Counted from the first letter of the stretch, positions 428-18,471 are shown. The stretch is 21,698 bases of DNA from Pyrinomonadaceae bacterium (GCA_050996405.1 JBPCRW010000096.1:1-21698), one strand, 5' to 3'. The notes: generated from the letters alone by a model not told the origin. Numbers and translations: made by a program.

Positions 428-2152
428 TTACGGTTTAACCGGAATTGCCGGTGTCGTCGTAGTCGTTGTGACCTGCTGCTGCGGCTGTCCGTTCGGCACA
501 AGCGACGTTGCCGGAGATTGCGGAACAACTTCCGGTGTCGGCGCGGAATTCGACGACGGATTTCCCATCGGAACGGGCTGAAGTATCGTCGTCGTGCGCG
601 TTCCCGTGCTGACGGTCGAACTGGTCGGGTTGCCCTGATAATCGGGGCGGTAAATGCGCGGCGTGATGAAAAACAGAATTTCATTCGATGTGCGCGAAAC
701 CGCTTTGCGTCTGAACAAGTTCTTTAAAACCGGAATTTTAGAGAGTCCCGGCGTGCTGAACTGGTCGTCGCCTTCGACATCCAGCAAAGCTCCGCCGACA
801 ACCGTCGTTCCGCCGTCGGGAACCATTACTTCGGTCTGCATTCTCTGCGAGTTGATAGCAGGCGTTCCGCCTGCCGCCACCGTTGAACTGACCGAGTTAT
901 TTTCCGTCACGACGTTTAAAACGACCGTGTTGGCATCGGTAATCTGCGGTGTGACGGCGAGCCGCAACGGAACTGAAACATACTGCGTCGTAAAGACTAC
1001 GCCGCCGCCGTTAGTTCCCGTCTGCGTCGTCACAATCGGAATTTGCTGACCGCTTTCAATCGTCGCCGAGCGATTATTCAAAGTCGTGATGCGCGGCGTG
1101 GCAATCGTTTTCGCCTGTCCTTTCTGTTCGCCCGCCGTAATCAGCGCGCTGATTTGCGCTGTTCCGAAAATGCCGGTCGTCAAACCGATAACCGTATTCG
1201 GAATTTGCGAAGCCAGCGTGTTAATCGGATTTACTCCGACTCCGGTTGGAATTCCGCCCGGATTTAGATTTGCGCTGCCATTTGTGCCGGGCGCGCCGCC
1301 GGGAAGATTGCCAGCCGAATAAGCCTGACCATTTCTGCCGAGCGCGACGGCGGCAAGCTGCACGCCGATGTCGCGGCTGAAATTTCGTGAAGCGATAACG
1401 ATGCGGGCTTCGATTTCAACCTGCGGTTCGGGCTGGTCGAGAAGTCCGACGAGTTGGCGCACGGCATCTATATTTTCCCGCACGTCGGTAACAATCAAAG
1501 TGTTGCTGCGCCCGTCAACTTCGACCGAGCCGCGCCGCGAAAGTCGTTTGGAGATAATTCCCAAAATTCCCTTGTCGCCGCCAGCGGAAGTTGTGCCGCC
1601 GCCCGCGCTTTCGCCGGAAGGCGCGCCGCCTTGAAACTGACCGGCGTTGCCGCCTGCCGCGCTTGTCAGACTGCCCGAAGCGCGGGCGTAATTCAAGCGG
1701 ATAAATTCCGTGTAGAGCGGCGATGTGTCAAGCTGGTTATCGCGGATTTGTCTGGCGACTGTCGCTTCGTTGGCAAGCACCGTGCGCTGGGCGATTCGCA
1801 AAATCGAGCCGTTTGTTTGAACGCCTAAATCCTGCGATTGCAGAATCGAATCGAGCGCGACATTCCACGGCACGTCCGAGACGTTGACCGTAATCGGAAC
1901 GTTGCTGACCGATTTATCAATCACGAAATTTACGCCGTATTGCTCGGTAATATAATTGAGAATGTCGCGGATGTCCGTATTGACGACATTCAAATTTATC
2001 GGCTCGCCGCGAAATCCCGGGTCGCCGTAATGTTTGCCTTCTTGCTGCGGCGCGACTTTCTGCGCGAAAGCAGTCAAAGCGAGACAACTGATGATTGCTA
2101 AAGCGAATAGAGCTTTTTTGCCGAACCCGCTTAAACATTGAAGAAAAGTCAT
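428..2152 (-). CDS. pilQ: Type IV pilus secretin PilQ
   Basis: The ORF is open to 2173, but I prefer the ATG at 2152. It has GGGAGG 5 nt upstream and gives the signal peptide MTFLQCLSGFGKKALFALAIISCLALTAFAQ. The N-terminus has secretin-N/STN-like modules. The C-terminal secretin core shows ATPRITTLNNRSATIESGQQIPIV, GLSKIPVLKNLFRRK and ILFFITPRI. It ends in a P/T/S/Q-rich tail. Confidence 0.9.
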   Translation of the reverse strand: MTFLQCLSGFGKKALFALAIISCLALTAFAQKVAPQQEGKHYGDPGFRGEPINLNVVNTDIRDILNYITEQYGVNFVIDKSVSNVPITVNVSDVPWNVALDSILQSQDLGVQTNGSILRIAQRTVLANEATVARQIRDNQLDTSPLYTEFIRLNYARASGSLTSAAGGNAGQFQGGAPSGESAGGGTTSAGGDKGILGIISKRLSRRGSVEVDGRSNTLIVTDVRENIDAVRQLVGLLDQPEPQVEIEARIVIASRNFSRDIGVQLAAVALGRNGQAYSAGNLPGGAPGTNGSANLNPGGIPTGVGVNPINTLASQIPNTVIGLTTGIFGTAQISALITAGEQKGQAKTIATPRITTLNNRSATIESGQQIPIVTTQTGTNGGGVVFTTQYVSVPLRLAVTPQITDANTVVLNVVTENNSVSSTVAAGGTPAINSQRMQTEVMVPDGGTTVVGGALLDVEGDDQFSTPGLSKIPVLKNLFRRKAVSRTSNEILFFITPRIYRPDYQGNPTSSTVSTGTRTTTILQPVPMGNPSSNSAPTPEVVPQSPATSLVPNGQPQQQVTTTTTTPAIPVKP

Positions 2153-2226
2153 AATTTCCTCCCTGGAAACCATCTCCGCCGATTTTTGGGGCGAAAGATT
2201 ACAAAGTAAATTTTAGTTGGAATGAC

Positions 2227-2251
2227 GGCGCGAGTTTTTAAAGTTCGCGCC
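2227..2251 (-). promoter_or_regulatory. Intercistronic stem-loop between pilP and pilQ
   Basis: Perfect 7-bp GC-rich stem, ggcgcga (2227-2233) with tcgcgcc (2245-2251), and an 11-nt loop, inside the 111-nt pilP-pilQ gap. No T-run follows it on the minus strand, so it is not a classic terminator. Function unknown. Confidence 0.3.
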
Positions 2252-2263
2252 TCGAAAATTGGA

Positions 2264-3106
2264 TTACTGGTCGGTGTTAGTGGCGACTTTAACCGATTTT
2301 TTCTCGGTTTTTCGCGCGGAAGAAGATGCTTTGGCAGTAGATTTTTTAACGCTGCTTGCCCGAACTTTTTTGTCGGATTTGGCGGAATCTTTCGGTTCAG
2401 CCGCCTGCTTGTTCATTTCTTCGAGCGGCGAAGAAATTATGGCGGAATTCGCGGGCTTGGTTTTATCATCCGACGGATTCGCGGGCGCGGCGTTGGCGGC
2501 ACTTTCCGTTTTGCCCGAAGGTTCAACCGGCGCGGTTCCCTGAACTTCCTGGTCAACCGTATATTCGCGCAAAGTTTTATTTTCTTCGGCGGCGATAAAT
2601 TTTCCGTTGGTCATTTTCGTCACTTTACGAAAAACGAGTTTGTTTTCCTCAATCGCCACAAGCTGCCCGTCAAAAAATTTCTCGCCCGGATAAATCGTAT
2701 AGGAAAGTTTAATCGGCTTGGCTTCGACCATTGCGGCGTAACCGCGCGGCGTGTGAAAAATTCCCGTGACGCTCATTTCGTCGAGCGTCAGAACGCTGGT
2801 CACTTTCGGAAGCGGCTGATTGTTCAACGCCGCCGCTTCACGCAAGCGTTTGTAATACGCGATGCGGTCCTGAATCGGCGGAGCGGTGACGACACTCGGT
2901 CCGGCGGGTTTCGGTTTCGCGGCGGGCGACGACGCGGATGCCGGAGCGGAAGTTCGCGGCGCGGAAGTTCGCGGCGCGGCGGCGGCGGGCTTGGAAAACG
3001 GGTCGCGCTGGGCGAAAACTCGCGCCGATTCTCCGCTCGCCAGCAGCAATCCGATAACGGCAAGCGGCAAACTCAAAAATTTTAATTTTCTCGACTTGTT
3101 TATCAT
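2264..3106 (-). CDS. pilP: PilP-like pilus assembly protein with long low-complexity N- and C-terminal extensions
   Basis: It sits between pilO and pilQ in the same orientation. The ATG at 3106 gives the signal peptide MINKSRKLKFLSLPLAVIGLLLASGESARVFAQ (the ORF is also open to a TTG at 3121). The central beta-rich block LTLDEMSVTGIFHTPRGYAAMVEAKPIKLSYTIYPGEKFFDGQLVAIEENKLVFRKV matches the PilP pattern. Flanking regions are A/P/S- and K/S/A-rich. Confidence 0.6.
   Translation of the reverse strand: MINKSRKLKFLSLPLAVIGLLLASGESARVFAQRDPFSKPAAAAPRTSAPRTSAPASASSPAAKPKPAGPSVVTAPPIQDRIAYYKRLREAAALNNQPLPKVTSVLTLDEMSVTGIFHTPRGYAAMVEAKPIKLSYTIYPGEKFFDGQLVAIEENKLVFRKVTKMTNGKFIAAEENKTLREYTVDQEVQGTAPVEPSGKTESAANAAPANPSDDKTKPANSAIISSPLEEMNKQAAEPKDSAKSDKKVRASSVKKSTAKASSSARKTEKKSVKVATNTDQ
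2946..2975. repeat. Perfect in-frame 15-nt tandem duplication inside pilP
   Basis: The unit gcggaagttcgcggc occurs at 2946-2960 and again at 2961-2975. On the coding strand it encodes PRTSA-PRTSA in the low-complexity N-terminal region. Confidence 0.85.
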
Positions 3107-3153
3107 ATCTTTCTCTCTCAAATAAAATCTTTATCTCAACTTGTCGCGCCGGA

Positions 3154-3804
3154 TTATTTCGCTGCTGCCGGAGCGGTCGCCGGTTGGTTCGGCGCGGGTT
3201 GCGTTCCGGTCGGCGCGGGCGCGCCCGGAGTTGTCGGCGGCGCGAGATTTTCCGGCGAAGCGTAATAAGCCGTCAGCGTAAATGTCGAATGCAGCGTCCG
3301 GTCAGCCGTCTGTTTGTCCAGTTGTTTTAAAGTGAAATCCTTAATCGAAACGATTCTGGGCAGTTTCGCCATCCGGTCGAAAAAGTCGCGCAGGTTATTG
3401 AAATTGCTGTCAACTTCAATCTCGACGGGCTTTTCCATAATCGAATTTTGCTGTGTATCTTCTTTCGGGAAAAAGCGGCTGATAATCAAGCGGCTGTCTC
3501 GCGCCGTGTCCTGCAAACCCTGCAAAACATTGGTGATTTCGCGCTGTTCCGGCAGCAAAACTTTCAATTCGTCGTATTCCTGCTGTTTGGCGGCATACAG
3601 GGCGCGTGTTTCGCTAAGGCGTTCAGTCTTGCGTTTAGCATCGTCATTTTTAGTTCGCAGTTGAGCCGTCTGGTCGTTCAATATTTCGGTCTCGGCGCGA
3701 ACGTCATTGGTGACAAAATACCGAACGCCATAAACCAACACGGCGGCGATACCGGCTAAAATGGCAAGCTGCCAATACCAATCTAATGATTTTATCTTTT
3801 CCAT
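3154..3804 (-). CDS. pilO: Type IV pilus biogenesis protein PilO
   Basis: 216 aa with one N-terminal TM helix (WYWQLAILAGIAAVLVYGV), a coiled-coil segment and then a PilO-type C-terminal domain. AAGGA lies upstream of the ATG. Its position between pilN and pilP supports the call. Confidence 0.8.
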   Translation of the reverse strand: MEKIKSLDWYWQLAILAGIAAVLVYGVRYFVTNDVRAETEILNDQTAQLRTKNDDAKRKTERLSETRALYAAKQQEYDELKVLLPEQREITNVLQGLQDTARDSRLIISRFFPKEDTQQNSIMEKPVEIEVDSNFNNLRDFFDRMAKLPRIVSIKDFTLKQLDKQTADRTLHSTFTLTAYYASPENLAPPTTPGAPAPTGTQPAPNQPATAPAAAK

Positions 3805-3884
3805 CGTTTTAGTTTCCTTTTCAGGTTGACCGTAAAAAATTTTCTGAAGGTGATTTTCTAAAATCCATTTTCGCTTATTTCGAG

Positions 3885-4652
3885 TTATTCTTTTCTCGCA
3901 ACCTGCGGCGGATTCGCGTTGCCGGAATTTGGCGCGGCGGGCTGCACGCTACTTGCCGTCGGCGCGTTTGAAACCGGCGGCGCGCCCGCCGGAGCGTTTG
4001 CCGGAGTCGCGCCGTTCATATTGTTTGCGCCGCTTGCTTTGGAAGGCGTGTAGGCGCAGTGGATTGTAAAATTAACGATTTCCGGTCGCGGCGCGTTCGG
4101 GTCGGACGAAGCCTGCACATACGGATTATCTTTGCGCTGCGTTTCGATATTCAAATTTGAAAACAGCCCGTCGGAAAATTCTAAATCGCGCCCGAATTTG
4201 GTGACGACCGATTCGTCCGGCGAATTTCCGTTAATGGTTAGCTGCTCGCCTTTTTGCTCGACGCTGTCGAGATAAAGTCCCGGATTCGCCAGAATTCTTT
4301 CTTTTAACGCTTCGAGAACCGCGCTCGGACCGGCTTGCGTCGAACGAAGCTGTTTAATGGCGGTAACGCGAGTATCGATATTTTTGATTTTTGCGTCGAG
4401 GTCGTTCAATTCTTTCAGCATCGCGTCATATTGAACCGCAATTTGTTTTTGTTCTTCGAGAGCTTTGGTCGCTTCGTCTTTCTGCATCGAGGTGTTGATA
4501 ATGTCAAAAGCAATAACCGCTATTGCCAATGCCAAAACCGCCAGCGACATCAGCAGCAGCCGCGTCATCGGACTCGCGGCGCGTCTTTCGACCGCGACGA
4601 CCGCGCCGCCCTGTCTATCCGTAACCGATTCTAAAAGGTTTATTTTAATCAT
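3885..4652 (-). CDS. pilN: Type IV pilus assembly protein PilN
   Basis: Starts with the canonical MIKINLL motif, followed by a TM helix (LLLMSLAVLALAIAVIAF) and a coiled coil. The start overlaps the pilM stop by 4 nt (ATGA). The C-terminus is an A/P/N-rich tail. Confidence 0.85.
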   Translation of the reverse strand: MIKINLLESVTDRQGGAVVAVERRAASPMTRLLLMSLAVLALAIAVIAFDIINTSMQKDEATKALEEQKQIAVQYDAMLKELNDLDAKIKNIDTRVTAIKQLRSTQAGPSAVLEALKERILANPGLYLDSVEQKGEQLTINGNSPDESVVTKFGRDLEFSDGLFSNLNIETQRKDNPYVQASSDPNAPRPEIVNFTIHCAYTPSKASGANNMNGATPANAPAGAPPVSNAPTASSVQPAAPNSGNANPPQVARKE

Positions 4653-5710
4653 CTTAATTCCACTCCCCTCAATGCCAGTCCGACGGCAACCGCCATCTCC
4701 GGCATAATTTCACTCAAATAATCGGGGTCAAATTTTCGCGCGTCAACTTTGATTTGGCGAAACGGGTCTAAAGTTTCGACCGGCAGTTCGAGACGCTTTG
4801 CCAAGCCTTCGCGCAAGCCTTCGAGTTTTGAGCCGCCGCCTGACACCAAAATTTTCTGCGCCGCCACGCCGCCGTCTTCGGCTGTCGCGCGGTAAAAGTC
4901 GAATGTTTTTTGAATTTCCAGCGCGACCATATCCATCACGTTATCCATCAAAGGCTCAATCGCTTTTTCTTCGACCGTTTCCGAATCGCTCGCCACGCCG
5001 CGCTTGACGGCTTCCGCCTGCTGAAAACTGATTCCCAAATTTCTTTGCAGAATATCCGTGAATTGACTGCCGCCGACGGTGATGTCGCGCGTAAAAAGTG
5101 AACGAGTTCCCTGCACGATATTGATATTCATTGTTGACGCGCCAATGTTGAGCAAGGTGACGACCTGCGATTCATCCGGCTGGTAATTGACTTCGTAGCA
5201 GTTTTGCAAAGCGAAAGTGTCAACGTCTATCACGATCGGCTGTTTGCCCGAAAGCTGAATCGCCTGTTTTAAGTTATCAATCCGCTCGCGCTTGCAGGCG
5301 GCGATTAAAACGTGCGTCGCCTGCGCGTTTTCGCCCGTTACCTGATAATCGAGCGTCACGTCCGACAAATCGTATGGAATATGTTCTTCGGCGTGCCAGT
5401 CGATTGATTCTTCGAGTTCGTCGCGGCTCATCGGCGGCAGCACGATATTTTTGATAATTACCGAATGACCGCTCACGCCTGTCACGACCTGTCCGGCTTT
5501 TATCTGGTGGTCTTTGCAAATGTTGTTAATCGCTTCGCTGACGGCGTTCAATTCCATAATCTGCCCGTCAACAACCGTGTCGCCCGGCAGATTTTCAAAT
5601 CCTAAACCCGCTAGATTCAGGCTGTTCATTTTGCCGTCAAGCTCAACGACTTTTATCGAACTCGAACCGATGTCCAAACCGGCAACGCTTTTCTTTTTAC
5701 CGAACTTCAT
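4649..5710 (-). CDS. pilM: Type IV pilus assembly protein PilM (actin-like ATPase fold)
   Basis: 353 aa with the GLDIGSSSIKVVEL phosphate-1 motif, LLNIGASTMNINIV and ILVSGGGSKLEGL, all typical of the PilM/FtsA-like fold. AAGGAG lies 12 nt upstream of the ATG. It is the first gene of the pil operon. Confidence 0.93.
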   Translation of the reverse strand: MKFGKKKSVAGLDIGSSSIKVVELDGKMNSLNLAGLGFENLPGDTVVDGQIMELNAVSEAINNICKDHQIKAGQVVTGVSGHSVIIKNIVLPPMSRDELEESIDWHAEEHIPYDLSDVTLDYQVTGENAQATHVLIAACKRERIDNLKQAIQLSGKQPIVIDVDTFALQNCYEVNYQPDESQVVTLLNIGASTMNINIVQGTRSLFTRDITVGGSQFTDILQRNLGISFQQAEAVKRGVASDSETVEEKAIEPLMDNVMDMVALEIQKTFDFYRATAEDGGVAAQKILVSGGGSKLEGLREGLAKRLELPVETLDPFRQIKVDARKFDPDYLSEIMPEMAVAVGLALRGVELR

Positions 5711-8909: not shown

Positions 8910-8974
8910 ATATTCCGTCATAATTGATTAAACTTATTGTTTGCCGAAATGCTTTCGGCGAAAGCGGTTTTACT

Positions 8975-10069
8975 ATGAGCGTTGAGAATTTGACGGAAAA
9001 CGAATCTCTGCCAATCGAAAATTCCGTCGCCGAAAATAAATCGAAATTCGCAAATCCGATGCTGTGGATACAGTTGATAACTTTTATCTTAGGTTTCGCG
9101 CTGCTGGTTTTCGTTATTTACAGAATCGGGCTTCACACGCTGTTCGACGCTTTTGCGAGAATCGGCTGGGGATTTCTGGCGATTGTCGCGCTTAACGGCG
9201 CGCGCCATTTTATCCGCGCGCTCTGCATGTATATCGCAGTTCCCGTCCGTCATCGCTCGTTTAAATATCGCTATGCGGTATCGGCGCGGCTTGCCGGTGA
9301 AGCCGTCAGTTTTTTGACCTTTACCGGACCGCTTTTGGGCGAAGCGACAAAAGCCGCTCTGCTGAAAAAACGCATTCCGCTCTCGCACGGCGTAACGGCG
9401 GTCGTCGTCGATAATATTCTGTATGATATTTCGGTCGCGCTGCTGATTTTAGGCGGAGTCGGCGTGATGTTTTACGTCTACGGCGGTGGCGATAGTCCTG
9501 CGATGCGTGATGTTTTATACGGCGTGGCAACGGTCGCCGCGCTAACCATCGTCGCTATTATCGTCGCGGCAAAATCGCGCTTTAAACCTCTAAGCTGGAC
9601 GCTCAAAAAACTTTCCGCGCGAGGCTGGCTGCCGCGTTTTATGGAAACCAAACAGCGGGGAGTTTATGAACTGGAAGACAACATTCACGAGCTTTACGCG
9701 AATCGCAAAACGACTTTTTTTTCAATGTTCGGACTGATTATTTTGTCGCACGTTTTAAGCGTGGTCGAAGTTTATGCCGCGCTGCATATGCTCGGCGAGA
9801 CTACGGTTCAGGCAAGCACCGCTTACATCATCGAATCGCTGACCAAAGTAATAAATTTCGCGTTCGGTTTTGTTCCCGGCACGGTCGGCGTTTACGAGGG
9901 CGGCAACGGAATAATTCTGCATTCGCTCGGCTATCCAACGGCAACCGGCGTAACGCTCGCGCTTGTGCGGCGCGGGGCGATTCTTTTCTGGACGATTATC
10001 GGACTTGTAATTCTGCTGTGGCGCGGAGTCGCGCGCGGCACGCAGCATTTGACCCGACGCGAATCTTAA
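8975..10069 (+). CDS. Lysylphosphatidylglycerol-synthase-TM-like (UPF0104, flippase-like) integral membrane protein
   Basis: I prefer the ATG at 8975 (the ORF is open from 8924). It is a polytopic membrane protein with about 8 hydrophobic segments and a basic loop followed by GPLLGEATKAALLKK, as seen in the LPG_synthase_TM family. Assigned by pattern only. Confidence 0.65.
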   Translation: MSVENLTENESLPIENSVAENKSKFANPMLWIQLITFILGFALLVFVIYRIGLHTLFDAFARIGWGFLAIVALNGARHFIRALCMYIAVPVRHRSFKYRYAVSARLAGEAVSFLTFTGPLLGEATKAALLKKRIPLSHGVTAVVVDNILYDISVALLILGGVGVMFYVYGGGDSPAMRDVLYGVATVAALTIVAIIVAAKSRFKPLSWTLKKLSARGWLPRFMETKQRGVYELEDNIHELYANRKTTFFSMFGLIILSHVLSVVEVYAALHMLGETTVQASTAYIIESLTKVINFAFGFVPGTVGVYEGGNGIILHSLGYPTATGVTLALVRRGAILFWTIIGLVILLWRGVARGTQHLTRRES

Positions 10070-10486: not shown

Positions 10487-12178
10487 TTGTCCGCCCAAAT
10501 TCTGCCTGCCACAACCGCCGGAATCAATCCCGAAAAATTTTCAGACGATGTTTTTTTCAGCCGAAACCGCAACGCGCTAATCACGTTTCTGGTTGTTTTG
10601 ATGATTATCGGTTTTGGCTTGCGCGTCTCAAATTTGAGCGCGGAAAGTTTGAGCGAAGACGAATTAAACAAACTGCAAACCGTCGCCGATTACCGCGCCA
10701 ACGGCTTGAGCGGTCGCAACGGCGAGCATCCTTTTTTGATGAAAGGCTTGCAGACAATAAGTTTTATCGTCGCGGACAAGTGGAACGCTTCCGCCTCCGC
10801 CGACCGGCAAATCTCCGACGAATACGCGCTGCGTTTTCCGACCGCGCTGTTCGGAACATTCACAATTCTTCTGTTGTTTCTACTCGTCAAAGAATTATTC
10901 GGTTCAACTATCGGGTTAATTTCCGCCGCGCTCTGGGCAGTTGAACCGACCGCAATTGGATTTGACCGCATCGCCAAAGAAGATTCTTTTGTGCTTTTCT
11001 TTTTTCTGCTGACAAATATTTTCTGGCTGCGCGGGCAAACGGCGGCGGAGCGCGGAAACGCGAAATGGTTTAAATACGTGCTGCTCGCGGGAGTCGCTTT
11101 TGCCGCGCTGACGGCATCGAAATATCTGCCGCATCTGCTTGCTATTAGTGCCGCCTACTACATAATTTTTCAGGCGATTCCGGCAACTGAATGGCGTATC
11201 GGAAGACCGCGCTGGCTGCTGTTTTGCGTTGTCATGGGCTTGAGTTTTCTGGTTTTCAATCCGACGATTTTCTATCCAGATACGTGGCGCGAGATGCTGA
11301 AATTTTCCGGCGAAAACCGCATCGGTCACGACTCTTACGAATTTATGGGCGCGCTCTACCGCAATCAAATGACGGCGTGGCTCTCCGGCGTTCCATGGAC
11401 TTTTTATTATGTTTTCATTCTCGTCAAAACTTCGCTTGTGACGCTGTTTTTTTTCCTGCTCGGACTGCCGATGCTGTTTAAACGCAAACTCGGTGACGGG
11501 CGTTATTTTTTGTTTTTCTGGGCGTTTATGTGGTTTATGCCATTCACGATTTTGGGCGGGAAATTCACGCGCTATTTCACGGCTGCCGAACCTTTAATTT
11601 TAATTTCAGCCGCCGCCGGATTTTATTTTACGATGCAGTGGCTCGCGCATAATTTTTTTCGTAAAGCGTCGGTAATCGCAATTTTTCAAACGATTTTATT
11701 CATTGCTTTTCTCGCGCCTCCAATTTTCAATTCGCTTTCCGCCGCGCCGCATTTCAGGCTTTTTACAAACACGCTCGGCGGAGGAATGAATCGGGCGGGC
11801 TACTATTTTCCGCACGACGAATTTTACGACACCGGCACGCGCGAAATCGTCGCGGAAATTGCTTCGCGCGCGCGACCGAACGCGGTTGTCGCCAATGAAA
11901 CTCCGACTTTGTTTGAGTATTACGCTGAAAAAATCGGTCGTAAAGATTTAAAATTCGTGTCGCTTTCCGACGATGCGGAAGCGGGAAATTTGACAGCGGG
12001 CGATTTCATTGTCGCCGCGCGCGGTCGCCGCTATTTCAGCAACAGCCAATATCTTGAATATCTCGAAAATAATATTTCGCCCGTCGCCGAAACCAAAGCG
12101 GGAGATGTCATTTCAGCCCGCGTTTATCAGCTTGACGAAACATCTGCGGCACGAATTCGGGAACTTTCAAAACAATGA
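10487..12178 (+). CDS. GT39 / ArnT-PMT-like phospholipid-carrier-dependent glycosyltransferase
   Basis: 563-aa polytopic membrane protein with a first periplasmic loop carrying acidic residues (SEDELNKL). The block RFPTALFGTFTILLLFLLVKELFGSTIGLISAALWAVEPTAIGFDRIAKEDSF is typical of the GT-C/PMT_2 family, and there is a soluble C-terminal domain. The start (TTG at 10487) is uncertain. Confidence 0.8.
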   Translation: MSAQILPATTAGINPEKFSDDVFFSRNRNALITFLVVLMIIGFGLRVSNLSAESLSEDELNKLQTVADYRANGLSGRNGEHPFLMKGLQTISFIVADKWNASASADRQISDEYALRFPTALFGTFTILLLFLLVKELFGSTIGLISAALWAVEPTAIGFDRIAKEDSFVLFFFLLTNIFWLRGQTAAERGNAKWFKYVLLAGVAFAALTASKYLPHLLAISAAYYIIFQAIPATEWRIGRPRWLLFCVVMGLSFLVFNPTIFYPDTWREMLKFSGENRIGHDSYEFMGALYRNQMTAWLSGVPWTFYYVFILVKTSLVTLFFFLLGLPMLFKRKLGDGRYFLFFWAFMWFMPFTILGGKFTRYFTAAEPLILISAAAGFYFTMQWLAHNFFRKASVIAIFQTILFIAFLAPPIFNSLSAAPHFRLFTNTLGGGMNRAGYYFPHDEFYDTGTREIVAEIASRARPNAVVANETPTLFEYYAEKIGRKDLKFVSLSDDAEAGNLTAGDFIVAARGRRYFSNSQYLEYLENNISPVAETKAGDVISARVYQLDETSAARIRELSKQ

Positions 12179-13467: not shown

Positions 13468-15000
13468 TCAAGACTGCTTTTCGGAATTAACCGGCGTTTG
13501 TCCGTCAATTTTGACCTTGATTTTCTTTTTCTTCGCCGCCGCGTCTTTCGTCAGAGCGATAATTTTTTCATATTCGTTTTCATCGCCTTTTTTCAATTGG
13601 CTGAAATCGAGTTCCGAATAATTGTTGCGAATTTCGACCATCAAAAAGCTGCGCCGCGCCGCGTTGTTGTCGTGATTCGACCAGAAAAAATTAGTCGGCG
13701 CGTCACCGTGTTTTTTCGACATCACTTTCCAGACTCGCGGGGCTTCGCGCGGGTCGTAGCCAGCCGCCGTCATATATTCCAGACCGATGCGGTCGGCTTG
13801 ATTTTCGAGGCTGCGCTGATAACCGTTGACCATCGCGGCGAGCGTCAACTGCAAAATATCCGTCACGCCGTAAAGCCCGAAAGCCGCTGCCGCGATGCCG
13901 CCGATTTGGATTGCCGTGCGCTTGCCCTTATCCTTATTCATTTGCCGCCAGGTGTGTTCCTGCGTCGCGTGCGAAATCTCGTGCGACATCACGGCGGCAA
14001 GCTGCGCTTCATTTTCCAGCATCGTAATCATTCCTGAATGGACGACCACGATTCCGTTTGCTAGAGCGAAAGCGTTCGGGCTTTTTTCGCTGACGACGTA
14101 AAACTTAAAAGGTATTTTTTGCGGGTCGCCGTCGGGCAAATTTTTTTGATACGCCGGAATCAAACTTTGCCCGACGCGCCGGACGTATTCCTGCACTTCT
14201 TTGTTCGGAAGCAGCTTGAATTTTCCGACCTGATTGATTTTCAATTCGCCCGGATTGCCTTCCGTAAAGTTAGGAGCTTTTTCTTTAATTTTAAGCGACT
14301 TCCACAGATTTCCTTCACCCTTTTCGAGTTCGTCTTTCGTAAAAACGATTCTCGAAGCCAGAATCGTGCCGTCCGCCTGCTCAACGCCTTCATAGACGGC
14401 GAACATTCCCGCTTTCACGTCCGACACCGATTTCAAAGGCTCACCGTCGCTAAATTCGTCGCCGTCCGTTTTCGGCTCGACTTTTTCTTTGTTTTTAGCT
14501 TCGTTTCGCGCCGCTTTTTTTTCAGATTTGTTTGGCTCGAATAAAACCTGCGTGGTCGGCTCGATGCGGATGCGCCTGCCGTCCGCCCAGAAAACTCCGT
14601 GCCAGCCGTTTTCCGTTTTTTCAATTCCTTCGGGAGCGCGAGTCAAAATAGTCGTGTTTTTTAATTTGCGAAACTGTTCAAGGTCAATCTTCAGTTTCTT
14701 GGCTTTCAACTCGTTGGTTTCTTCGTCGAGTTCGCCTTGAACTTCTATTTCCGTGCCGACGCGAATGTCTTCGGGTTTGAATTGAAAAGTTCCATCCTGG
14801 TTCTCAAAATCCAAAACGACCGAATCGTCGTCTGTAATTTTATAATCGTCAATCTCGAAAGATTTTGGAGAAATGACGTTGGTGATGTAACCATGAATTT
14901 TTACTTGTTTGCCTTTATTACCGTCGGCTTTAACAGGCAGCGAAGTCGAAAAAAAGACGCAAAGAATTAAACCGGCAAGAAATTGTGTTTTGTTTAACAT
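13468..15000 (-). CDS. Secreted M48-family zinc metallopeptidase with an N-terminal beta-rich (DUF5666-like) domain
   Basis: The ATG at 15000 has AAGGAA 9 nt upstream and gives the signal peptide MLNKTQFLAGLILCVFFSTSLPVKA (the ORF is open to 15042). The HEISH zinc motif appears in AAVMSHEISHATQEH, with a downstream ENQADRIGLEYM glutamate ligand region typical of M48. Confidence 0.85.
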   Translation of the reverse strand: MLNKTQFLAGLILCVFFSTSLPVKADGNKGKQVKIHGYITNVISPKSFEIDDYKITDDDSVVLDFENQDGTFQFKPEDIRVGTEIEVQGELDEETNELKAKKLKIDLEQFRKLKNTTILTRAPEGIEKTENGWHGVFWADGRRIRIEPTTQVLFEPNKSEKKAARNEAKNKEKVEPKTDGDEFSDGEPLKSVSDVKAGMFAVYEGVEQADGTILASRIVFTKDELEKGEGNLWKSLKIKEKAPNFTEGNPGELKINQVGKFKLLPNKEVQEYVRRVGQSLIPAYQKNLPDGDPQKIPFKFYVVSEKSPNAFALANGIVVVHSGMITMLENEAQLAAVMSHEISHATQEHTWRQMNKDKGKRTAIQIGGIAAAAFGLYGVTDILQLTLAAMVNGYQRSLENQADRIGLEYMTAAGYDPREAPRVWKVMSKKHGDAPTNFFWSNHDNNAARRSFLMVEIRNNYSELDFSQLKKGDENEYEKIIALTKDAAAKKKKIKVKIDGQTPVNSEKQS

Positions 15001-15153
15001 ATCTGAAATTCCTTTGTTGTTTATGGTTTTGAGCCGTAACAATATACATCGAAAATCTCGATTTGCAAAGAAGAAAAGTGTGTTTTCGGCGCGCCTTGAG
15101 ACGAAGACTAAAAGCGGGAAATAATTTTTGAAGACTTAATTATTTTGAAAAGA

Positions 15154-15180
15154 AAACGCAGGCTGATTTGACCTGCGTTT
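15154..15180 (-). terminator. Rho-independent (bidirectional-looking) terminator closing the radical SAM operon
   Basis: Perfect 9-bp stem, aaacgcagg (15154-15162) with cctgcgttt (15172-15180), and a 9-nt loop. T-rich tracts follow it on both strands. It lies 9 nt after the stop of the 67-aa ORF. Confidence 0.65.
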
Positions 15181-15188
15181 TTCGAGAT

Positions 15189-15392
15189 TTACACTGCGTC
15201 ATTTTCATCTTTCTCTTTCGGATGAAGCGGTTTGCCGCTTTCGTCAATCGCGTTTTTATCTTCTTGTTCCTGCGGCGTTTTTTTGCCCGGCTGCGGCGCG
15301 TGTTCCGGGTGGTCGCCGACAATTTCAAGTTTTTCGCCTTCGTGTTCGTCCAGCACTTTTTTGTCGTGCGCTATATCTCTTTCGTCCGGCAT
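15189..15392 (-). CDS. Hypothetical small acidic protein (67 aa), last gene of the radical SAM operon
   Basis: AAGGAG lies about 10 nt upstream of the ATG, which is 30 nt after the upstream radical SAM stop. A terminator follows directly. The composition is D/E/K/H/P-rich, with no Cys and no hydrophobic core, and I recognise no family. Confidence 0.5.
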   Translation of the reverse strand: MPDERDIAHDKKVLDEHEGEKLEIVGDHPEHAPQPGKKTPQEQEDKNAIDESGKPLHPKEKDENDAV

Positions 15393-15422
15393 ATTTTATT
15401 TTCTCCTTTTATCCGACTAAAT

Positions 15423-16334
15423 TTAATTTCTTCCGACGGCTTTTTTCAGAGCCTCTTTCGCAACTAATTTCGGGCTGTTCATCGTCGCCATATAAAACGG
15501 CACGACGCAGCCGCATTTGTCGCAATCGGCGTTGTCGCCCATCATACATTTTCCTTTGGGTTTTCCGTCCGCGCCGAGCGTGAACGCCTTTTCTCTGAAC
15601 AAACAATTGTCGGTAACTTTTTTCGCATTTTTCGATTTCATCAAATCGAGCGTTGAATCGAGCATATTGATTTTGCCCGGATATTTCTTTTTAAGCCGGA
15701 GAAGTTTATCAATTATTGCATCGCGTTCCGTCCAATCAATCCACAAAGATTCGTCTAATTTATTAACCGGCGTAAAGAAATCGAAAATAATTCCGCCGCG
15801 CGCTAAATCTCCCCATTCGACAATTAAATCTTCGATGCAGTCTTTTGTCAAACTCGTCAAAACACAGGAAATCTGAATCTTCAAATTTTGATGGCGGCGC
15901 ACGTTTTCCTTGATTTTCTGATAAATTCCGGGCGCGCGCATTTTCGCAAACGCTTCTTCCGTGCCGTCAATCGAAATCACCCAGGTGCAGTCCGTCCAAT
16001 CGGGCAATTCCATTGTGCCGTTGGTGACGACTGTGTTGTGCTTGAAATATTTGCGTCCGGCTTCGATAAGCGGTTTTCTAACTAACGGCTCGCCGCCGAC
16101 CCAGGTGCAGAGCAGCATTGGGTCGCCCGCCGCTTTCATTTGTTCGAGTTTTTCAATCCATTCTTCGACGGTCAGTTCAACTTCCTTGTGTTCTTCGGCG
16201 AAAAAATAACAATGCTCGCAGCGCAGATTGCAGCGTTTGGTTGCGTCAATCGAGCCGACGGCGTTATCCGGCATTCCGAACATCATCAACTTGGCAAGAC
16301 TGCTGATGTTTTTGATGGTTTTGACGATTTTCAT
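15423..16334 (-). CDS. Radical SAM enzyme (303 aa) with a C-terminal auxiliary Cys cluster; function unassigned
   Basis: CX3CX2C motif in TKRCNLRCEHCYF. WVGGEPL is the GGE SAM-binding motif. The C-terminus has NC-x19-C-x7-CDKCGC, reminiscent of HpnH/SPASM-twitch type auxiliary cluster sites. The start codon is 5 nt after the upstream gene's stop. Confidence 0.88.
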   Translation of the reverse strand: MKIVKTIKNISSLAKLMMFGMPDNAVGSIDATKRCNLRCEHCYFFAEEHKEVELTVEEWIEKLEQMKAAGDPMLLCTWVGGEPLVRKPLIEAGRKYFKHNTVVTNGTMELPDWTDCTWVISIDGTEEAFAKMRAPGIYQKIKENVRRHQNLKIQISCVLTSLTKDCIEDLIVEWGDLARGGIIFDFFTPVNKLDESLWIDWTERDAIIDKLLRLKKKYPGKINMLDSTLDLMKSKNAKKVTDNCLFREKAFTLGADGKPKGKCMMGDNADCDKCGCVVPFYMATMNSPKLVAKEALKKAVGRN

Positions 16335-16339
16335 TTCCC

Positions 16340-18304
16340 TTAAACCGCAACCGACTCGGTTTCTTCTTCCTCAACCAAATACGGCGAAACGCTTGGCGCG
16401 TCGTTGTCTTCGGCAACGATTTTAGCAATCACGGGCAGACTCAGACTGCGTGTTTTGCCGATGCCCGCAACTTCCTTGCCTTTGGCATAGACGGCGTGCC
16501 GCCCGTGTTCTTTATACCATTCGCTCAAACTCGCGGTTTTATTCATTTCTTCAACGATTTGCCGCCAGCCGACTCCGGTGTTATAGGCGCAAAATGAAAT
16601 CTCGCCTTCCTGCGTGCCGTATGGAATGACGCACATTTCGGTTCGGCGGAAATCGTAATTGAACAAATCCTGAAACCACATTCCTTCGACGCACAGGACG
16701 CGCCACATATCTTCGGTTTCATTTTTGGGTTCGGTTTTCATTCTATCGTTTCTATCCGAATTTGAATCAGCCGACGACGGTTTAAAAAGATTCAAAATTT
16801 GCGAAACGGGAAAACCGTCGGGCGCGTTCGATGCGTCGTAATTTCGCATAATCGCCATTCCCAATTGCGCCATCGTCAGCTTTTTGCCGCGTGCCGTATC
16901 GGTGATTGTGGCGACATCCTTCATAAATTGTTCGTAGTTAAAAAAGTCGAACAGCGATGTCATCGCGCTCGTCTTTTTATTGACGACAATCAATGTAAAA
17001 ATCCCGCAGTTCGGATGACAGTTGCAAGACGACCAGCCCCACGGTGCGTCCGCGCCTTGCAACATATCCATCACGGAAGTAAAAGCTGAATATGAAGAAA
17101 GCGGAAACCAATCGCGCAGCGGCTGAAGCGTTCCGCCGAGTTGGTCTTTCAAATCGTGCGTCATTCCCGCCAAAGTGTAGCGTTGCTGAATGCGGTCTTT
17201 GTCGGAAACGTCTTCGTCGCGTCCTGTAAAGCTGACAGGTTGGAAAGCAATCGTCTGAACTTTATCAATATTCTGCGCCGCGAATTTCACGATGTCGCCG
17301 ATTGCATCATTGTTGATTGTGTTGACGATTGTCGTAACGAGCGTAACTTTTATTCCAACCGACGCGAGATTTTCAATCGCTTTTAATTTTACATCGAACA
17401 AATTGCCAACGCCGCGATGCTTGTTTTTCTCTTCGCTCGTTCCGTCGAATTGCAGATAAACGCCGTGTTGTCCGGCTTCTTTGGCGGCTTTGCAAAACTC
17501 GATGTCTTCGGCGTAGCGAATACCGTTTGTCGCGGCTAAGATTCGGTAAAATCCAATCTTCTTCGCATACGCGACCGATTCCAAAAAGTGCGGTGCAATC
17601 GTCGGTTCGCCGCCCGAAAATAAAATGATGATTTGTCGTCGCGGCTTGAAGGAAATCGCGTTGTCCAAAATCTGTTTCGTGTCTTCAAACGTCGGCTCGT
17701 GAACGTAGCCGACTTGGTTCGCGTCCATAAAACACGGGTTGCACATCATATTGCAGCGATTGGTTAAATCAACGGTTAAAACCGCGCCGCGCCCGAATTT
17801 TATATCGGAAGTTCCGTGATGATGAACGTGCTTGTCTTCCGCCGCTTTAAAATCACGCCCGTAAAACAGCGATTCAATGCGTTCTAAAAATTTGGCATCA
17901 GTCGCCATCACATCAACAAATTCGCCGTGCGTCGGGCAGGTTTTCTTCATCAAGACTTGCCCGTTTTCTTCGACAATCTGCGCCTTGATTTCGCCCGGAT
18001 GCGCGTTCATTAAAATCTCAAGCGGAATTGTTTTATTGATAACGCCTTCGCGCACGTTTTTCACGCACGTCGGACAAAGCGAATCGGTTTCGCGTGGAAA
18101 ACCCAACGGTGGCGCGGTGCGCTCGTAAGATTTCAAAAGCGGTTCAGCCGCCCAATTCGGCGTAATTGATTCGCCTTCGGGCAAAGTTTTATTAACGGCT
18201 TGAAACGCCTTCCAACCAATATCGGCAAGTTTCGACGCGGCTTTCGAGCCGGTCTTTCCCTTGCCTTTCCCACCTTCGCCGCGTCTGAAATTATCACTGA
18301 ACAT
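16340..18304 (-). CDS. Large radical SAM enzyme (654 aa), Tes / GDGT-MAS (MJ0619, class D radical SAM)-like
   Basis: An N-terminal zinc-ribbon-like knuckle (SLCPTC ... KKTCPTHGEF) is followed by the radical SAM motif TVDLTNRCNMMCNPCF and SGGEPT. Further Cys sets are SSCNCHPNCG and LCVEGMWFQDLFNYDFRRTEMCVIPYGTQEGEISFCAYN. The radical SAM call is about 0.9. The Tes-family assignment is about 0.55 and rests on remembered architecture. Confidence 0.85.
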   Translation of the reverse strand: MFSDNFRRGEGGKGKGKTGSKAASKLADIGWKAFQAVNKTLPEGESITPNWAAEPLLKSYERTAPPLGFPRETDSLCPTCVKNVREGVINKTIPLEILMNAHPGEIKAQIVEENGQVLMKKTCPTHGEFVDVMATDAKFLERIESLFYGRDFKAAEDKHVHHHGTSDIKFGRGAVLTVDLTNRCNMMCNPCFMDANQVGYVHEPTFEDTKQILDNAISFKPRRQIIILFSGGEPTIAPHFLESVAYAKKIGFYRILAATNGIRYAEDIEFCKAAKEAGQHGVYLQFDGTSEEKNKHRGVGNLFDVKLKAIENLASVGIKVTLVTTIVNTINNDAIGDIVKFAAQNIDKVQTIAFQPVSFTGRDEDVSDKDRIQQRYTLAGMTHDLKDQLGGTLQPLRDWFPLSSYSAFTSVMDMLQGADAPWGWSSCNCHPNCGIFTLIVVNKKTSAMTSLFDFFNYEQFMKDVATITDTARGKKLTMAQLGMAIMRNYDASNAPDGFPVSQILNLFKPSSADSNSDRNDRMKTEPKNETEDMWRVLCVEGMWFQDLFNYDFRRTEMCVIPYGTQEGEISFCAYNTGVGWRQIVEEMNKTASLSEWYKEHGRHAVYAKGKEVAGIGKTRSLSLPVIAKIVAEDNDAPSVSPYLVEEEETESVAV

Positions 18305-18471
18305 AATGTTTTGATATAAAAAGCCGAGTAGAAATTTTTGATGTTTGATGCCGCAAATACAAGCTAAAGGCTAACAAATTTCGTATTCGTTGACAAATTA
18401 TTCGGATAAAGAACAATTTATAGAGAGAGCGAAGCGGTTTGTATATGTAAAGATTTATCGTCTTTTAAACC

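Follow-up and report, generated by a model that had tools for sequence, protein, structure and literature searches.

Does a compact group of three genes in a soil acidobacterium encode a bacterial counterpart of the archaeal tetraether lipid synthase (Tes, also termed GDGT-MAS), and do the two smaller genes take part in the same lipid chemistry? The locus lies on a 21,698-nucleotide (nt) stretch of DNA from a Pyrinomonadaceae bacterium (GCA_050996405.1, JBPCRW010000096.1:1-21698), which was analysed over its full length and is referred to here as the window. Branched glycerol dialkyl glycerol tetraethers (GDGTs) and iso-diabolic-acid lipids underlie widely used palaeotemperature and pH proxies, and the enzymes that make them in aerobic Acidobacteria have not yet been demonstrated. 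Acidobacteria of subdivision 4 are abundant soil bacteria that make such lipids. A first-pass annotation of the window had proposed a Tes-like gene with two dedicated partner genes. The three open reading frames (ORFs) concerned are given below, as called.

16340-18304, minus strand: tes-like gene, 654 amino acids (aa)
15423-16334, minus strand: radical S-adenosylmethionine (SAM) gene, 303 aa (rSAM303)
15189-15392, minus strand: sp67 gene, 67 aa

Judged by its sequence, the 654-aa gene is a bacterial member of the Tes/GDGT-MAS family, in a subclade conserved in Pyrinomonadaceae/Blastocatellia (Acidobacteriota subdivision 4). Membership of its product in the Tes fold family is virtually certain. 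Among NCBIfam models the top match is Tes (NF045702; 323.6 bits, E 1.9e-96, model positions 2-482 of 486), followed by TrsS with 208.7 bits. Pfam recognises Radical_SAM (PF04055, residues 180-342) and Zn_ribbon_HMPTM (PF23545, 56 bits), a zinc ribbon named after the archaeal protein MJ0619. Compared with PDB sequences, the protein matches 7TOL (GDGT-MAS) best, with an E-value of 3.7e-69 and a runner-up at 1e-7. An AF2 model was built from a 28-sequence alignment (predicted local distance difference test score, pLDDT, 71; predicted template-modelling score, pTM, 0.76). In Foldseek, this model superposes on the GDGT-MAS structure 7TOM with E 7.4e-40, a template-modelling (TM) score of 0.84 (target-normalised) and a root-mean-square deviation of 4.5 Å over 544 columns. 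The next PDB fold match, MoaA (2e-7), is about 33 orders of magnitude weaker. The placement in the MJ0619/Tes/GDGT-MAS family suggested by the first-pass annotation is thereby borne out, as NCBIfam, PDB-sequence and fold comparisons all rank Tes first by tens of orders of magnitude, and neither profiles nor folds favoured peptide maturases or PqqE. A tblastn search against plasmids returned only half-length matches of 26-31% identity to other radical SAM proteins, and looking up the exact sequence of the window protein gave no existing record.

GDGT-MAS has four metal sites, namely a rubredoxin-like site, an N-terminal cluster ([4Fe-4S]N), the radical SAM cluster and a C-terminal cluster ([4Fe-4S]C) (Lloyd et al., PMC9433317). 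In MJ0619, the rubredoxin-like site is C9x2C12x20C33x2H36 (three Cys and one His), [4Fe-4S]N is held by C73/C77/C80 and a His, and [4Fe-4S]C by three Cys and a labile Met439 (PMC9433317). Every motif quoted earlier for the 654-aa protein was found: C77PTC80...C123PTH126G, C184NMMC188NPC191, C427NC429HPNC433 and C538...C558...FC572AYN. Close to the N-terminus stands GEGGKGKGKTGSK, and the C-terminus carries VEEEETESVAV. These parts were compared in an alignment of 28 sequences (A2) that comprises full-length MJ0619, 19 other archaeal Tes, the window protein and seven close homologs; the window protein shares 30-35% identity with the 20 archaeal Tes. The protein search with MJ0619 that supplied the archaeal sequences brought up no bacterial homolog of the Koribacter or Solibacter type. 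On the window the parts are placed as follows.

18101-18304, minus strand: N-terminal extension, residues 1-68, with a Gly/Lys-rich start and a predicted helix at 21-40 (A2; mostly low pLDDT)
17927-18076, minus strand: rubredoxin-like site C77-x2-C80...C123-x2-H126, with a 22-residue insertion relative to archaeal Tes (28 of 28 in A2; 77 of 77 Blastocatellia homologs)
17813-17830, minus strand: His-rich segment H159-V-H-H-H-G164, without Cys, in place of the archaeal [4Fe-4S]N motif (A2)
17732-17755, minus strand: radical SAM motif C184-NMM-C188-NP-C191 (invariant in A2; PF04055)
16589-17026, minus strand: C-terminal auxiliary-cluster domain (A2)
16343-16507, minus strand: C-terminal extension, about residues 600-654, with the acidic tail at its end (largely missing in archaeal Tes; pLDDT below 50)

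All 28 A2 sequences share the residues C77, C80, C123 and H126, C184, C188 and C191, and H430, C433, M542, C558 and C572, the last five of which correspond to H335, C338, M439, C455 and C470 of MJ0619. The Cys ligands of [4Fe-4S]C were deduced from conservation, the ligand Cys not being itemised in the text of PMC9433317; C438 and C456 of MJ0619 were set aside as ligands because they vary among archaea.

The expectation that all cluster-ligating Cys would align with GDGT-MAS failed at one site, as the [4Fe-4S]N ligand set is without a counterpart. The motif GCPxDCGLCxxH, present in 20 of 20 archaeal Tes, is replaced by (E)DKHVHHHGTSDIK in all eight aligned and all 77 locus-derived Blastocatellia homologs, and no CX3CX2C plus His equivalent of MJ0619 C73/C77/C80 was found in the 654-aa protein. 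No Cys lies between residues 123 and 184, and the same holds for each of the 77 homologs translated from fetched loci. Within the replacing segment H161, H163 and G164 are invariant (77/77), and the AF2 pLDDT is below 50 over residues 150-172. The same 77 homologs invariably carry C427, C429 and C538. Two of these, C427 and C538, are clade-invariant without an archaeal Tes counterpart, and C429 is present in about 40% of archaeal Tes. Compared with archaeal Tes, proteins of the clade are also longer by 68 aa at the N-terminus and by about 55 aa at the C-terminus, and they carry two insertions, one of 22 aa within the ribbon and an internal one of about 14 aa. The N-terminal extension and the acidic tail had been noted before as foreign to the archaeal enzymes, and indeed none of the 20 aligned archaeal Tes has either. 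On these alignments, the 654-aa protein combines the Tes fold with intact predicted ligands of the catalytic cluster and the loss of one auxiliary cluster motif.

The gene is a lineage-wide trait among the relatives collected. The best 120 homologs, which share 85-94% identity with it, belong to Pyrinomonadaceae, Blastocatellia or Acidobacteriota (subdivision 4 lineage), as do all 80 loci examined in GTDB. The GTDB scan with the 654-aa protein recovered 570 candidate stretches; all GTDB counts given here cover the 80 loci examined among these, with relatives of at least 80% identity only. Cultured subdivision 4 acidobacteria contain abundant iso-diabolic acid and its glycerol ether (PMC13274423), and a search for homologs of mss, a bacterial gene for tail coupling, found none in Acidobacteria (Sahonero-Canavesi et al., PMC13159169). 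Because subdivision 4 makes such lipids and no mss was found in the phylum, the lineage-wide Tes-like gene is a directly testable candidate.

Bacterial Tes homologs have been known as presumptive makers of membrane-spanning lipids since 2022, when 456 of them, including acidobacterial ones, were reported and a role in branched GDGT synthesis was proposed (Zeng et al. 2022, PMC8941075). Halamka et al. built a pathway upon this proposal (PMC10087280). The function of bacterial Tes homologs was still termed unconfirmed in 2025 (PMC11868695), and in the account of a 2026 paper (PMC13023045), Chen et al. 2025 reportedly tied the iso-diabolic tetraesters of Ca. Koribacter to Tes. Phospholipids of E. 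coli, which are ester-linked, are bound by GDGT-MAS as well (PMC9433317). The first-pass suggestion that such homologs yield membrane-spanning lipids thus agrees with what is in print and is not new (PMC8941075, PMC10087280, PMC11214058, PMC13023045). What is new here is the loss of the N-terminal cluster motif, the clade-specific Cys and extensions, and the tes-linked small radical SAM family; a literature search found no description of the [4Fe-4S]N loss or of the 303-aa partner gene.

Because the host group makes iso-diabolic-acid membrane-spanning lipids, tail coupling of the iso-diabolic-acid type is the likeliest job of the 654-aa protein. In such a reaction, SAM would be cleaved twice per C-C bond. 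A 5'-deoxyadenosyl radical would strip a hydrogen off one lipid tail at its terminal methyl, the first tail radical would be parked on a sulfide of the C-terminal cluster, and a second abstraction on another tail would then lead to the C(sp3)-C(sp3) bond. In this host, glycerolipids would supply the tails as iso-C15 acyl or alkyl chains, joined at their ω-methyls into membrane-spanning lipids of the iso-diabolic-acid type. The 303-aa gene, 5 nt downstream, would probably be translationally coupled to tes, and its product would most likely modify the same tails, for example with an extra bridge, a ring or a methyl group. The functional statement as a whole, comprising Tes-like tail coupling to iso-diabolic-acid-type lipids, an accessory lipid enzyme of 303 aa and an optional sp67, appears moderately probable to us.

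The 303-aa protein carries the radical SAM motif C35NLRC39EHC42 and the C-terminal Cys C244, C263, C271, C274 and C276. Pfam matches Radical_SAM only and leaves the C-terminal 135 aa without any match, SPASM included, and the top NCBIfam match reaches 50 bits (ScmE), far under any cut-off. Its family is of modest size, with 88 clusters (50% identity) at E < 1e-30 and 304 at E < 1e-10. In the family alignment (A1), CTWVGGEP, VTNG, VTDxC and KxKCMMGxxADCxxCGCVVP are invariant, as are the five C-terminal Cys. The AF2 model (pLDDT 86.9) finds its nearest PDB folds by Foldseek in SkfB, SuiB, BlsE and anSME, and GDGT-MAS appears at rank 28. The protein probably represents a small twitch/SPASM-like radical SAM family without a characterised member, with a putative auxiliary cluster in its Cys-rich C-terminal domain.

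Three other identities of the 303-aa protein were rejected. A truncated Tes paralog does not fit, as hhalign matches only residues 25-147 to Tes residues 174-315 (26% identity) and gives no C-terminal match. Gms, the enzyme that makes glycerol monoalkyl glycerol tetraethers (GMGTs), is at least 400 aa long against the 303 aa found here, and the AhbD model TIGR04545 scores 32 bits against a cut-off of 500. A relation to archaeal lipid methylases or desaturases was dismissed, those being B12-binding radical SAM enzymes.

Linkage of the 303-aa gene to tes is best seen from the side of the smaller gene. A metagenome scan with the 303-aa protein gave 80 loci of 69-91% identity, and a tes homolog (at least 50% identity) lies upstream on the same strand in 48 of the 59 informative ones (~81%). 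When at least 3 kb of upstream sequence is present, tes is upstream of the 303-aa gene in 20 of 27 loci. The gap between the two is at most about 300 nt in 22 loci and about 700-950 nt in some 19 others, which leaves room for one small gene. The larger gap class is explained by a PEGA-domain gene that sits between tes and the 303-aa gene. In a tes subclade of 77-81% identity (L064-L079 and many metagenome loci), we observed that a secreted PEGA-domain protein of 190-310 aa is encoded at this position. Divergence in one of the two genes goes along with divergence in the other (Spearman 0.53, p 4e-4). At one locus (L030, 9907-10980), the same slot, between sp67 and a tes 89% identical to that of the window, is taken by a family member sharing only 44-50% identity, which suggests replacement within the 303-aa family at a fixed position.

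More distant homologs occur in other settings. In another lineage, homologs of 47-50% identity (L083, 8001-13908; contexts P0379 and P0381) head co-directional operons of the order rSAM-(OEP)-MlaC-unknown-GH42M-like. The L083 operon is preceded by genes for MMPL, LPG_synthase_TM, a CDP-alcohol phosphatidyltransferase and a GFO/IDH/MocA oxidoreductase. In a metagenome-assembled genome of Candidatus Schekmanbacteria (L081, 1895-4289), a homolog of 53% identity lies in convergent orientation to a B12-binding radical SAM gene of 450 aa. Because of the tes linkage and the lipid-transport contexts of these distant homologs, we conclude that the 303-aa gene, tes-linked in Blastocatellia, presumably encodes an accessory enzyme acting on membrane lipids.

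The sp67 product is an acidic protein of 67 aa with the motifs MPDE+D, G.HPEHAPQPG+KTPQ, AIDESGN and DENDA, no Cys and almost no aromatic residues, and it matches no family in Pfam or NCBIfam. Its 22 homologs in the fetched loci each have an upstream Shine-Dalgarno sequence. Variability by codon position is 39/26/60, highest at the third position. A non-coding or antisense artefact, which was considered for this ORF, is countered by the codon-position test and the Shine-Dalgarno sequences. A 99-aa ORF lies antisense to sp67 (window 15168-15467, plus strand) and is open in many relatives; the codon pattern and Shine-Dalgarno sequence place coding in the sp67 frame, and the longer antisense ORF is a by-product of a purine-rich coding strand. 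Of 80 metagenome loci, 5 have sp67 close to the 303-aa gene, as do 2 of about 11 in GTDB; usually it comes straight after tes, mostly with no 303-aa gene. It is a real, optional neighbour.

Within the window, the layout is exactly as first noted, with three same-strand ORFs on the minus strand separated by 5 nt and 30 nt. The junction between the 654-aa and 303-aa genes reads TAA-GGGAA-ATG (gap 16335-16339), and in the 30-nt gap before sp67 a Shine-Dalgarno sequence, AAGGAG, stands 9 nt ahead of the ATG. Each of the three ORFs is a real gene, and homologs of the two large ones number in the hundreds to thousands. The flanking elements are the following.

15147-15180, minus strand: terminator-like hairpin with U-run that closes the three-gene unit (RNA folding)
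18305-18471, minus strand: AT-rich spacer of 167 nt 5' of the 654-aa gene, presumed promoter region

The hairpin and T-run at 15154-15180, reported earlier from inspection, were confirmed by RNA folding. The minimum-energy fold has an 11-pair stem, a 7-nt loop and a U-rich tail (9 pairs and a 9-nt loop when read by eye), with a dG of -15.1 kcal/mol and z = -5.8; none of 200 shuffles folded equally well. A consensus terminator scan did not list this hairpin, probably owing to the scan's stem/loop and T-run criteria, and a scan of the minus strand for sigma-70-like promoters gave no match in the 167-nt upstream spacer. From spacing and terminator, the three genes are probably co-transcribed in the window.

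Conservation across genomes tells a different story for the trio than for tes. By tblastn, the 303-aa gene is beside tes in about 11 of 80 GTDB loci, one of these being a paralog of only 44% identity, and sp67 in about 18 of 80, mostly directly after tes. The window order tes, 303-aa gene, sp67 recurs in two metagenome contigs (L084 and L085). Another has tes, sp67, 303-aa gene (L029), and in one that lacks the tes region sp67 precedes the 303-aa gene (L086). The content 3' of tes is variable and includes a PEGA-domain protein, HDOD proteins, a Uma2 endonuclease, and an FtsX or PGI-like gene; at two loci (L004, L005), tes and sp67 are separated by an inserted gene for a Uma2-family endonuclease of 210-227 aa. 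The tetratricopeptide repeat (TPR) and M48 neighbours of the window were considered as unit members and rejected, both being beside tes in 0 of 80 loci. The M48 metalloprotease, which has an N-terminal DUF5666, lies immediately 3' of the terminator (13468-15042, minus strand). When checked, conservation of the trio thus did not hold, the order being confined to the window and a few close relatives. The three genes are not a conserved cassette. Of the first-pass claim of two dedicated partner genes, the part that survives is the link of the 303-aa gene to tes as seen from its own side; the 303-aa gene is missing from most tes loci, and sp67 from about three quarters of them.

Several points weigh against the proposed roles and bear on four other explanations. 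The function of the 654-aa protein is read from homology at 30-35% identity and from the known lipids of the host. Its 323.6 bits are below the NCBIfam Tes equivalog cut-off of 450 bits (NF045702), and the PGAP/NCBI label for close homologs is 'radical SAM protein', archaeal ones being called 'tetraether lipid synthase Tes'. With one of the four Tes metallocofactor sites missing, electron delivery, and possibly the chemistry, may differ. Under stringent criteria, Tes homologs were present in 3 of 14 iso-diabolic-acid-producing acidobacteria, and an alternative pathway was suggested (PMC13159169). The neighbourhood is without fatty-acid, glycerolipid or ether-lipid genes, and conservation does not extend to its flanks (TPR protein, M48 protease, FtsX). 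The low identity, the sub-cut-off score, the lost [4Fe-4S]N together with three new invariant Cys near the catalytic cluster, and the 3/14 figure would all suit an enzyme that is not an iso-diabolic acid synthase and acts on another hydrophobic substrate or by another tail chemistry, such as macrocyclisation, ether lipids only, or an isoprenoid- or polyketide-like lipid. We nevertheless consider this unlikely: the C-terminal cluster ligands, labile Met included, are invariant, and a gene in 570 GTDB candidate stretches, with the 80 examined all of the host lineage, matches a lineage-wide lipid trait. Moreover, the 3/14 figure comes from stringent thresholds that a 32%-identical homolog could escape. 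Hardly credible is the legacy annotation as a class D radical SAM methylase (7,8-dihydro-6-hydroxymethylpterin dimethyltransferase), which lives on in the JGI name of several homologs and in the Pfam name Zn_ribbon_HMPTM derived from it. To our knowledge, Acidobacteria have no need for methanopterin, which counts against this annotation. The activity was also not reproduced by Lloyd et al., and MJ0619 was shown to be a lipid synthase (PMC9433317).

As regards the smaller genes, the 303-aa gene is missing at about 86% of tes loci (~69 of 80), and in 7 of the 27 well-covered loci it is found on its own, among varying neighbours; its closest solved folds are peptide maturases, and no specific family or function can be assigned to the protein. 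All but the fold matches would be expected if the 303-aa gene and sp67 lay next to tes through synteny without shared function, the 303-aa enzyme having an unrelated substrate. We think this quite unlikely in view of the ~81% of informative occurrences downstream of tes on the same strand (22 within about 300 nt), the co-divergence with tes, the distant family member in the same L030 slot and the independent lipid-transport contexts in another lineage. The fold and NCBIfam neighbours of the 303-aa protein (SkfB, SuiB, ScmE, PapB), and a small conserved ORF adjoining radical SAM genes, recall instead a system for RiPPs (peptides made by ribosomes and then modified after translation), with sp67 as precursor modified by the 303-aa or the Tes-like enzyme. 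The poor co-occurrence of sp67 with the 303-aa gene (the 5 of 80 metagenome and 2 of about 11 GTDB loci given above) makes a precursor role less likely, and sp67 lacks Cys and almost all aromatics. The maturase matches are at most 50 bits against cut-offs of 340-625, and the 654-aa protein matches a lipid enzyme over its full length, which leaves a RiPP-like system very improbable.

Iso-diabolic-acid-type coupling with a tes-linked accessory enzyme remains the preferred reading, and a bolder version of it can be put forward as possible but doubtful. The 654-aa type of protein could be the long-sought iso-diabolic acid synthase of aerobic Acidobacteria, working without the N-terminal cluster and perhaps with an Fe-S site moved to C427/C429/C538. 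The 303-aa protein would then found a new small family of lipid-tail-modifying radical SAM enzymes, which would tailor membrane-spanning lipids (bridge, ring or methyl) in Blastocatellia and be coupled to Mla/OEP lipid export in other phyla. A Tes-like enzyme that has lost one of the four metallocofactors amounts to a natural experiment on the role of the missing cluster, and the patchy 303-aa gene could account for strain-to-strain differences in lipid tailoring.

The window, with a GC content of about 42-56% in 1-kb windows, holds further recognisable genes. A type IV pilus operon occupies 428-5710 on the minus strand, with PilM (4649-5710), PilN (3885-4652), PilO (3154-3804) and the secretin PilQ (428-2173), and an unassigned ORF in the PilP position. 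An LPG_synthase_TM-family membrane protein (8924-10069, plus strand) and a PMT_2/ArnT-like glycosyltransferase (10487-12178, plus strand) are encoded 4-7 kb from tes; an LPG_synthase_TM gene is also present in the cluster around the distant 303-aa homolog of L083.

Among known systems, archaeal Tes/GDGT-MAS (MJ0619; 7TOL/7TOM; NF045702) shares with the 654-aa protein the order of a zinc-ribbon/rubredoxin-like domain, a radical SAM core and a C-terminal cluster domain. Common to both are CX2C...CX2H, CX3CX2C and the C-terminal Cys/Met/Cys/Cys ligands, at a TM score of 0.84 and 30% identity over about 545 columns. They differ in the segment that is GCPxDCGLCxxH in archaea and HxHHHG here, in the extensions, insertions and three extra invariant Cys (C427, C429, C538) of the window clade, and in their hosts, archaea having isoprenoid lipids whereas the window host has bacterial fatty-acid lipids. 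The acidobacterial Tes homologs of Zeng et al. 2022 (Ca. Koribacter versatilis, Ca. Solibacter usitatus, Edaphobacter aggregans) come from the same phylum and have the same proposed lipid role, and the 654-aa protein falls within the search thresholds of that study (E < 1e-50 and identity > 20%; PMC8941075). With 30-35% identity to archaeal Tes, its clade is nearer the E. aggregans type (32%) than the Koribacter/Solibacter type (40-42%), a comparison of published figures only and not of the sequences. Mss of Thermotoga/Thermoanaerobacter (Sahonero-Canavesi et al. 2022) is likewise a radical SAM enzyme and couples tails end to end to diabolic and iso-diabolic acids, the same outcome as proposed for the 654-aa protein. 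By its description, however, it is set apart as a separate radical SAM family that escapes BLAST searches with Tes and that is active only anaerobically (PMC13159169).

For the 303-aa gene, a known parallel is Gms, an AhbD-like SPASM enzyme (Garcia et al. 2024, Li et al. 2024). Like the 303-aa gene, gms homologs encode radical SAM proteins and are reported to cluster with tes, in Acidobacteria and Planctomycetes, and they are thought to act on the Tes product (PMC11214058). Unlike the 303-aa protein, with its single short Cys-rich C-terminal domain, Gms has at least 400 aa, an N-terminal extension of about 100 aa and a similarity to AhbD at E ~1e-79 (PMC11214058). SkfB, SuiB, anSME, BlsE and MoaA resemble the 303-aa protein in combining a radical SAM core with a C-terminal Cys-rich domain (Foldseek E 3.5e-12 to 1e-8, TM 0.58-0.67). 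From these twitch/SPASM enzymes it is separated by an identity of 14-18%, by its own motif VTDNC...KGKCMMG..ADCDxCGCVVP, and by a genomic context that is lipid- and not peptide-related.

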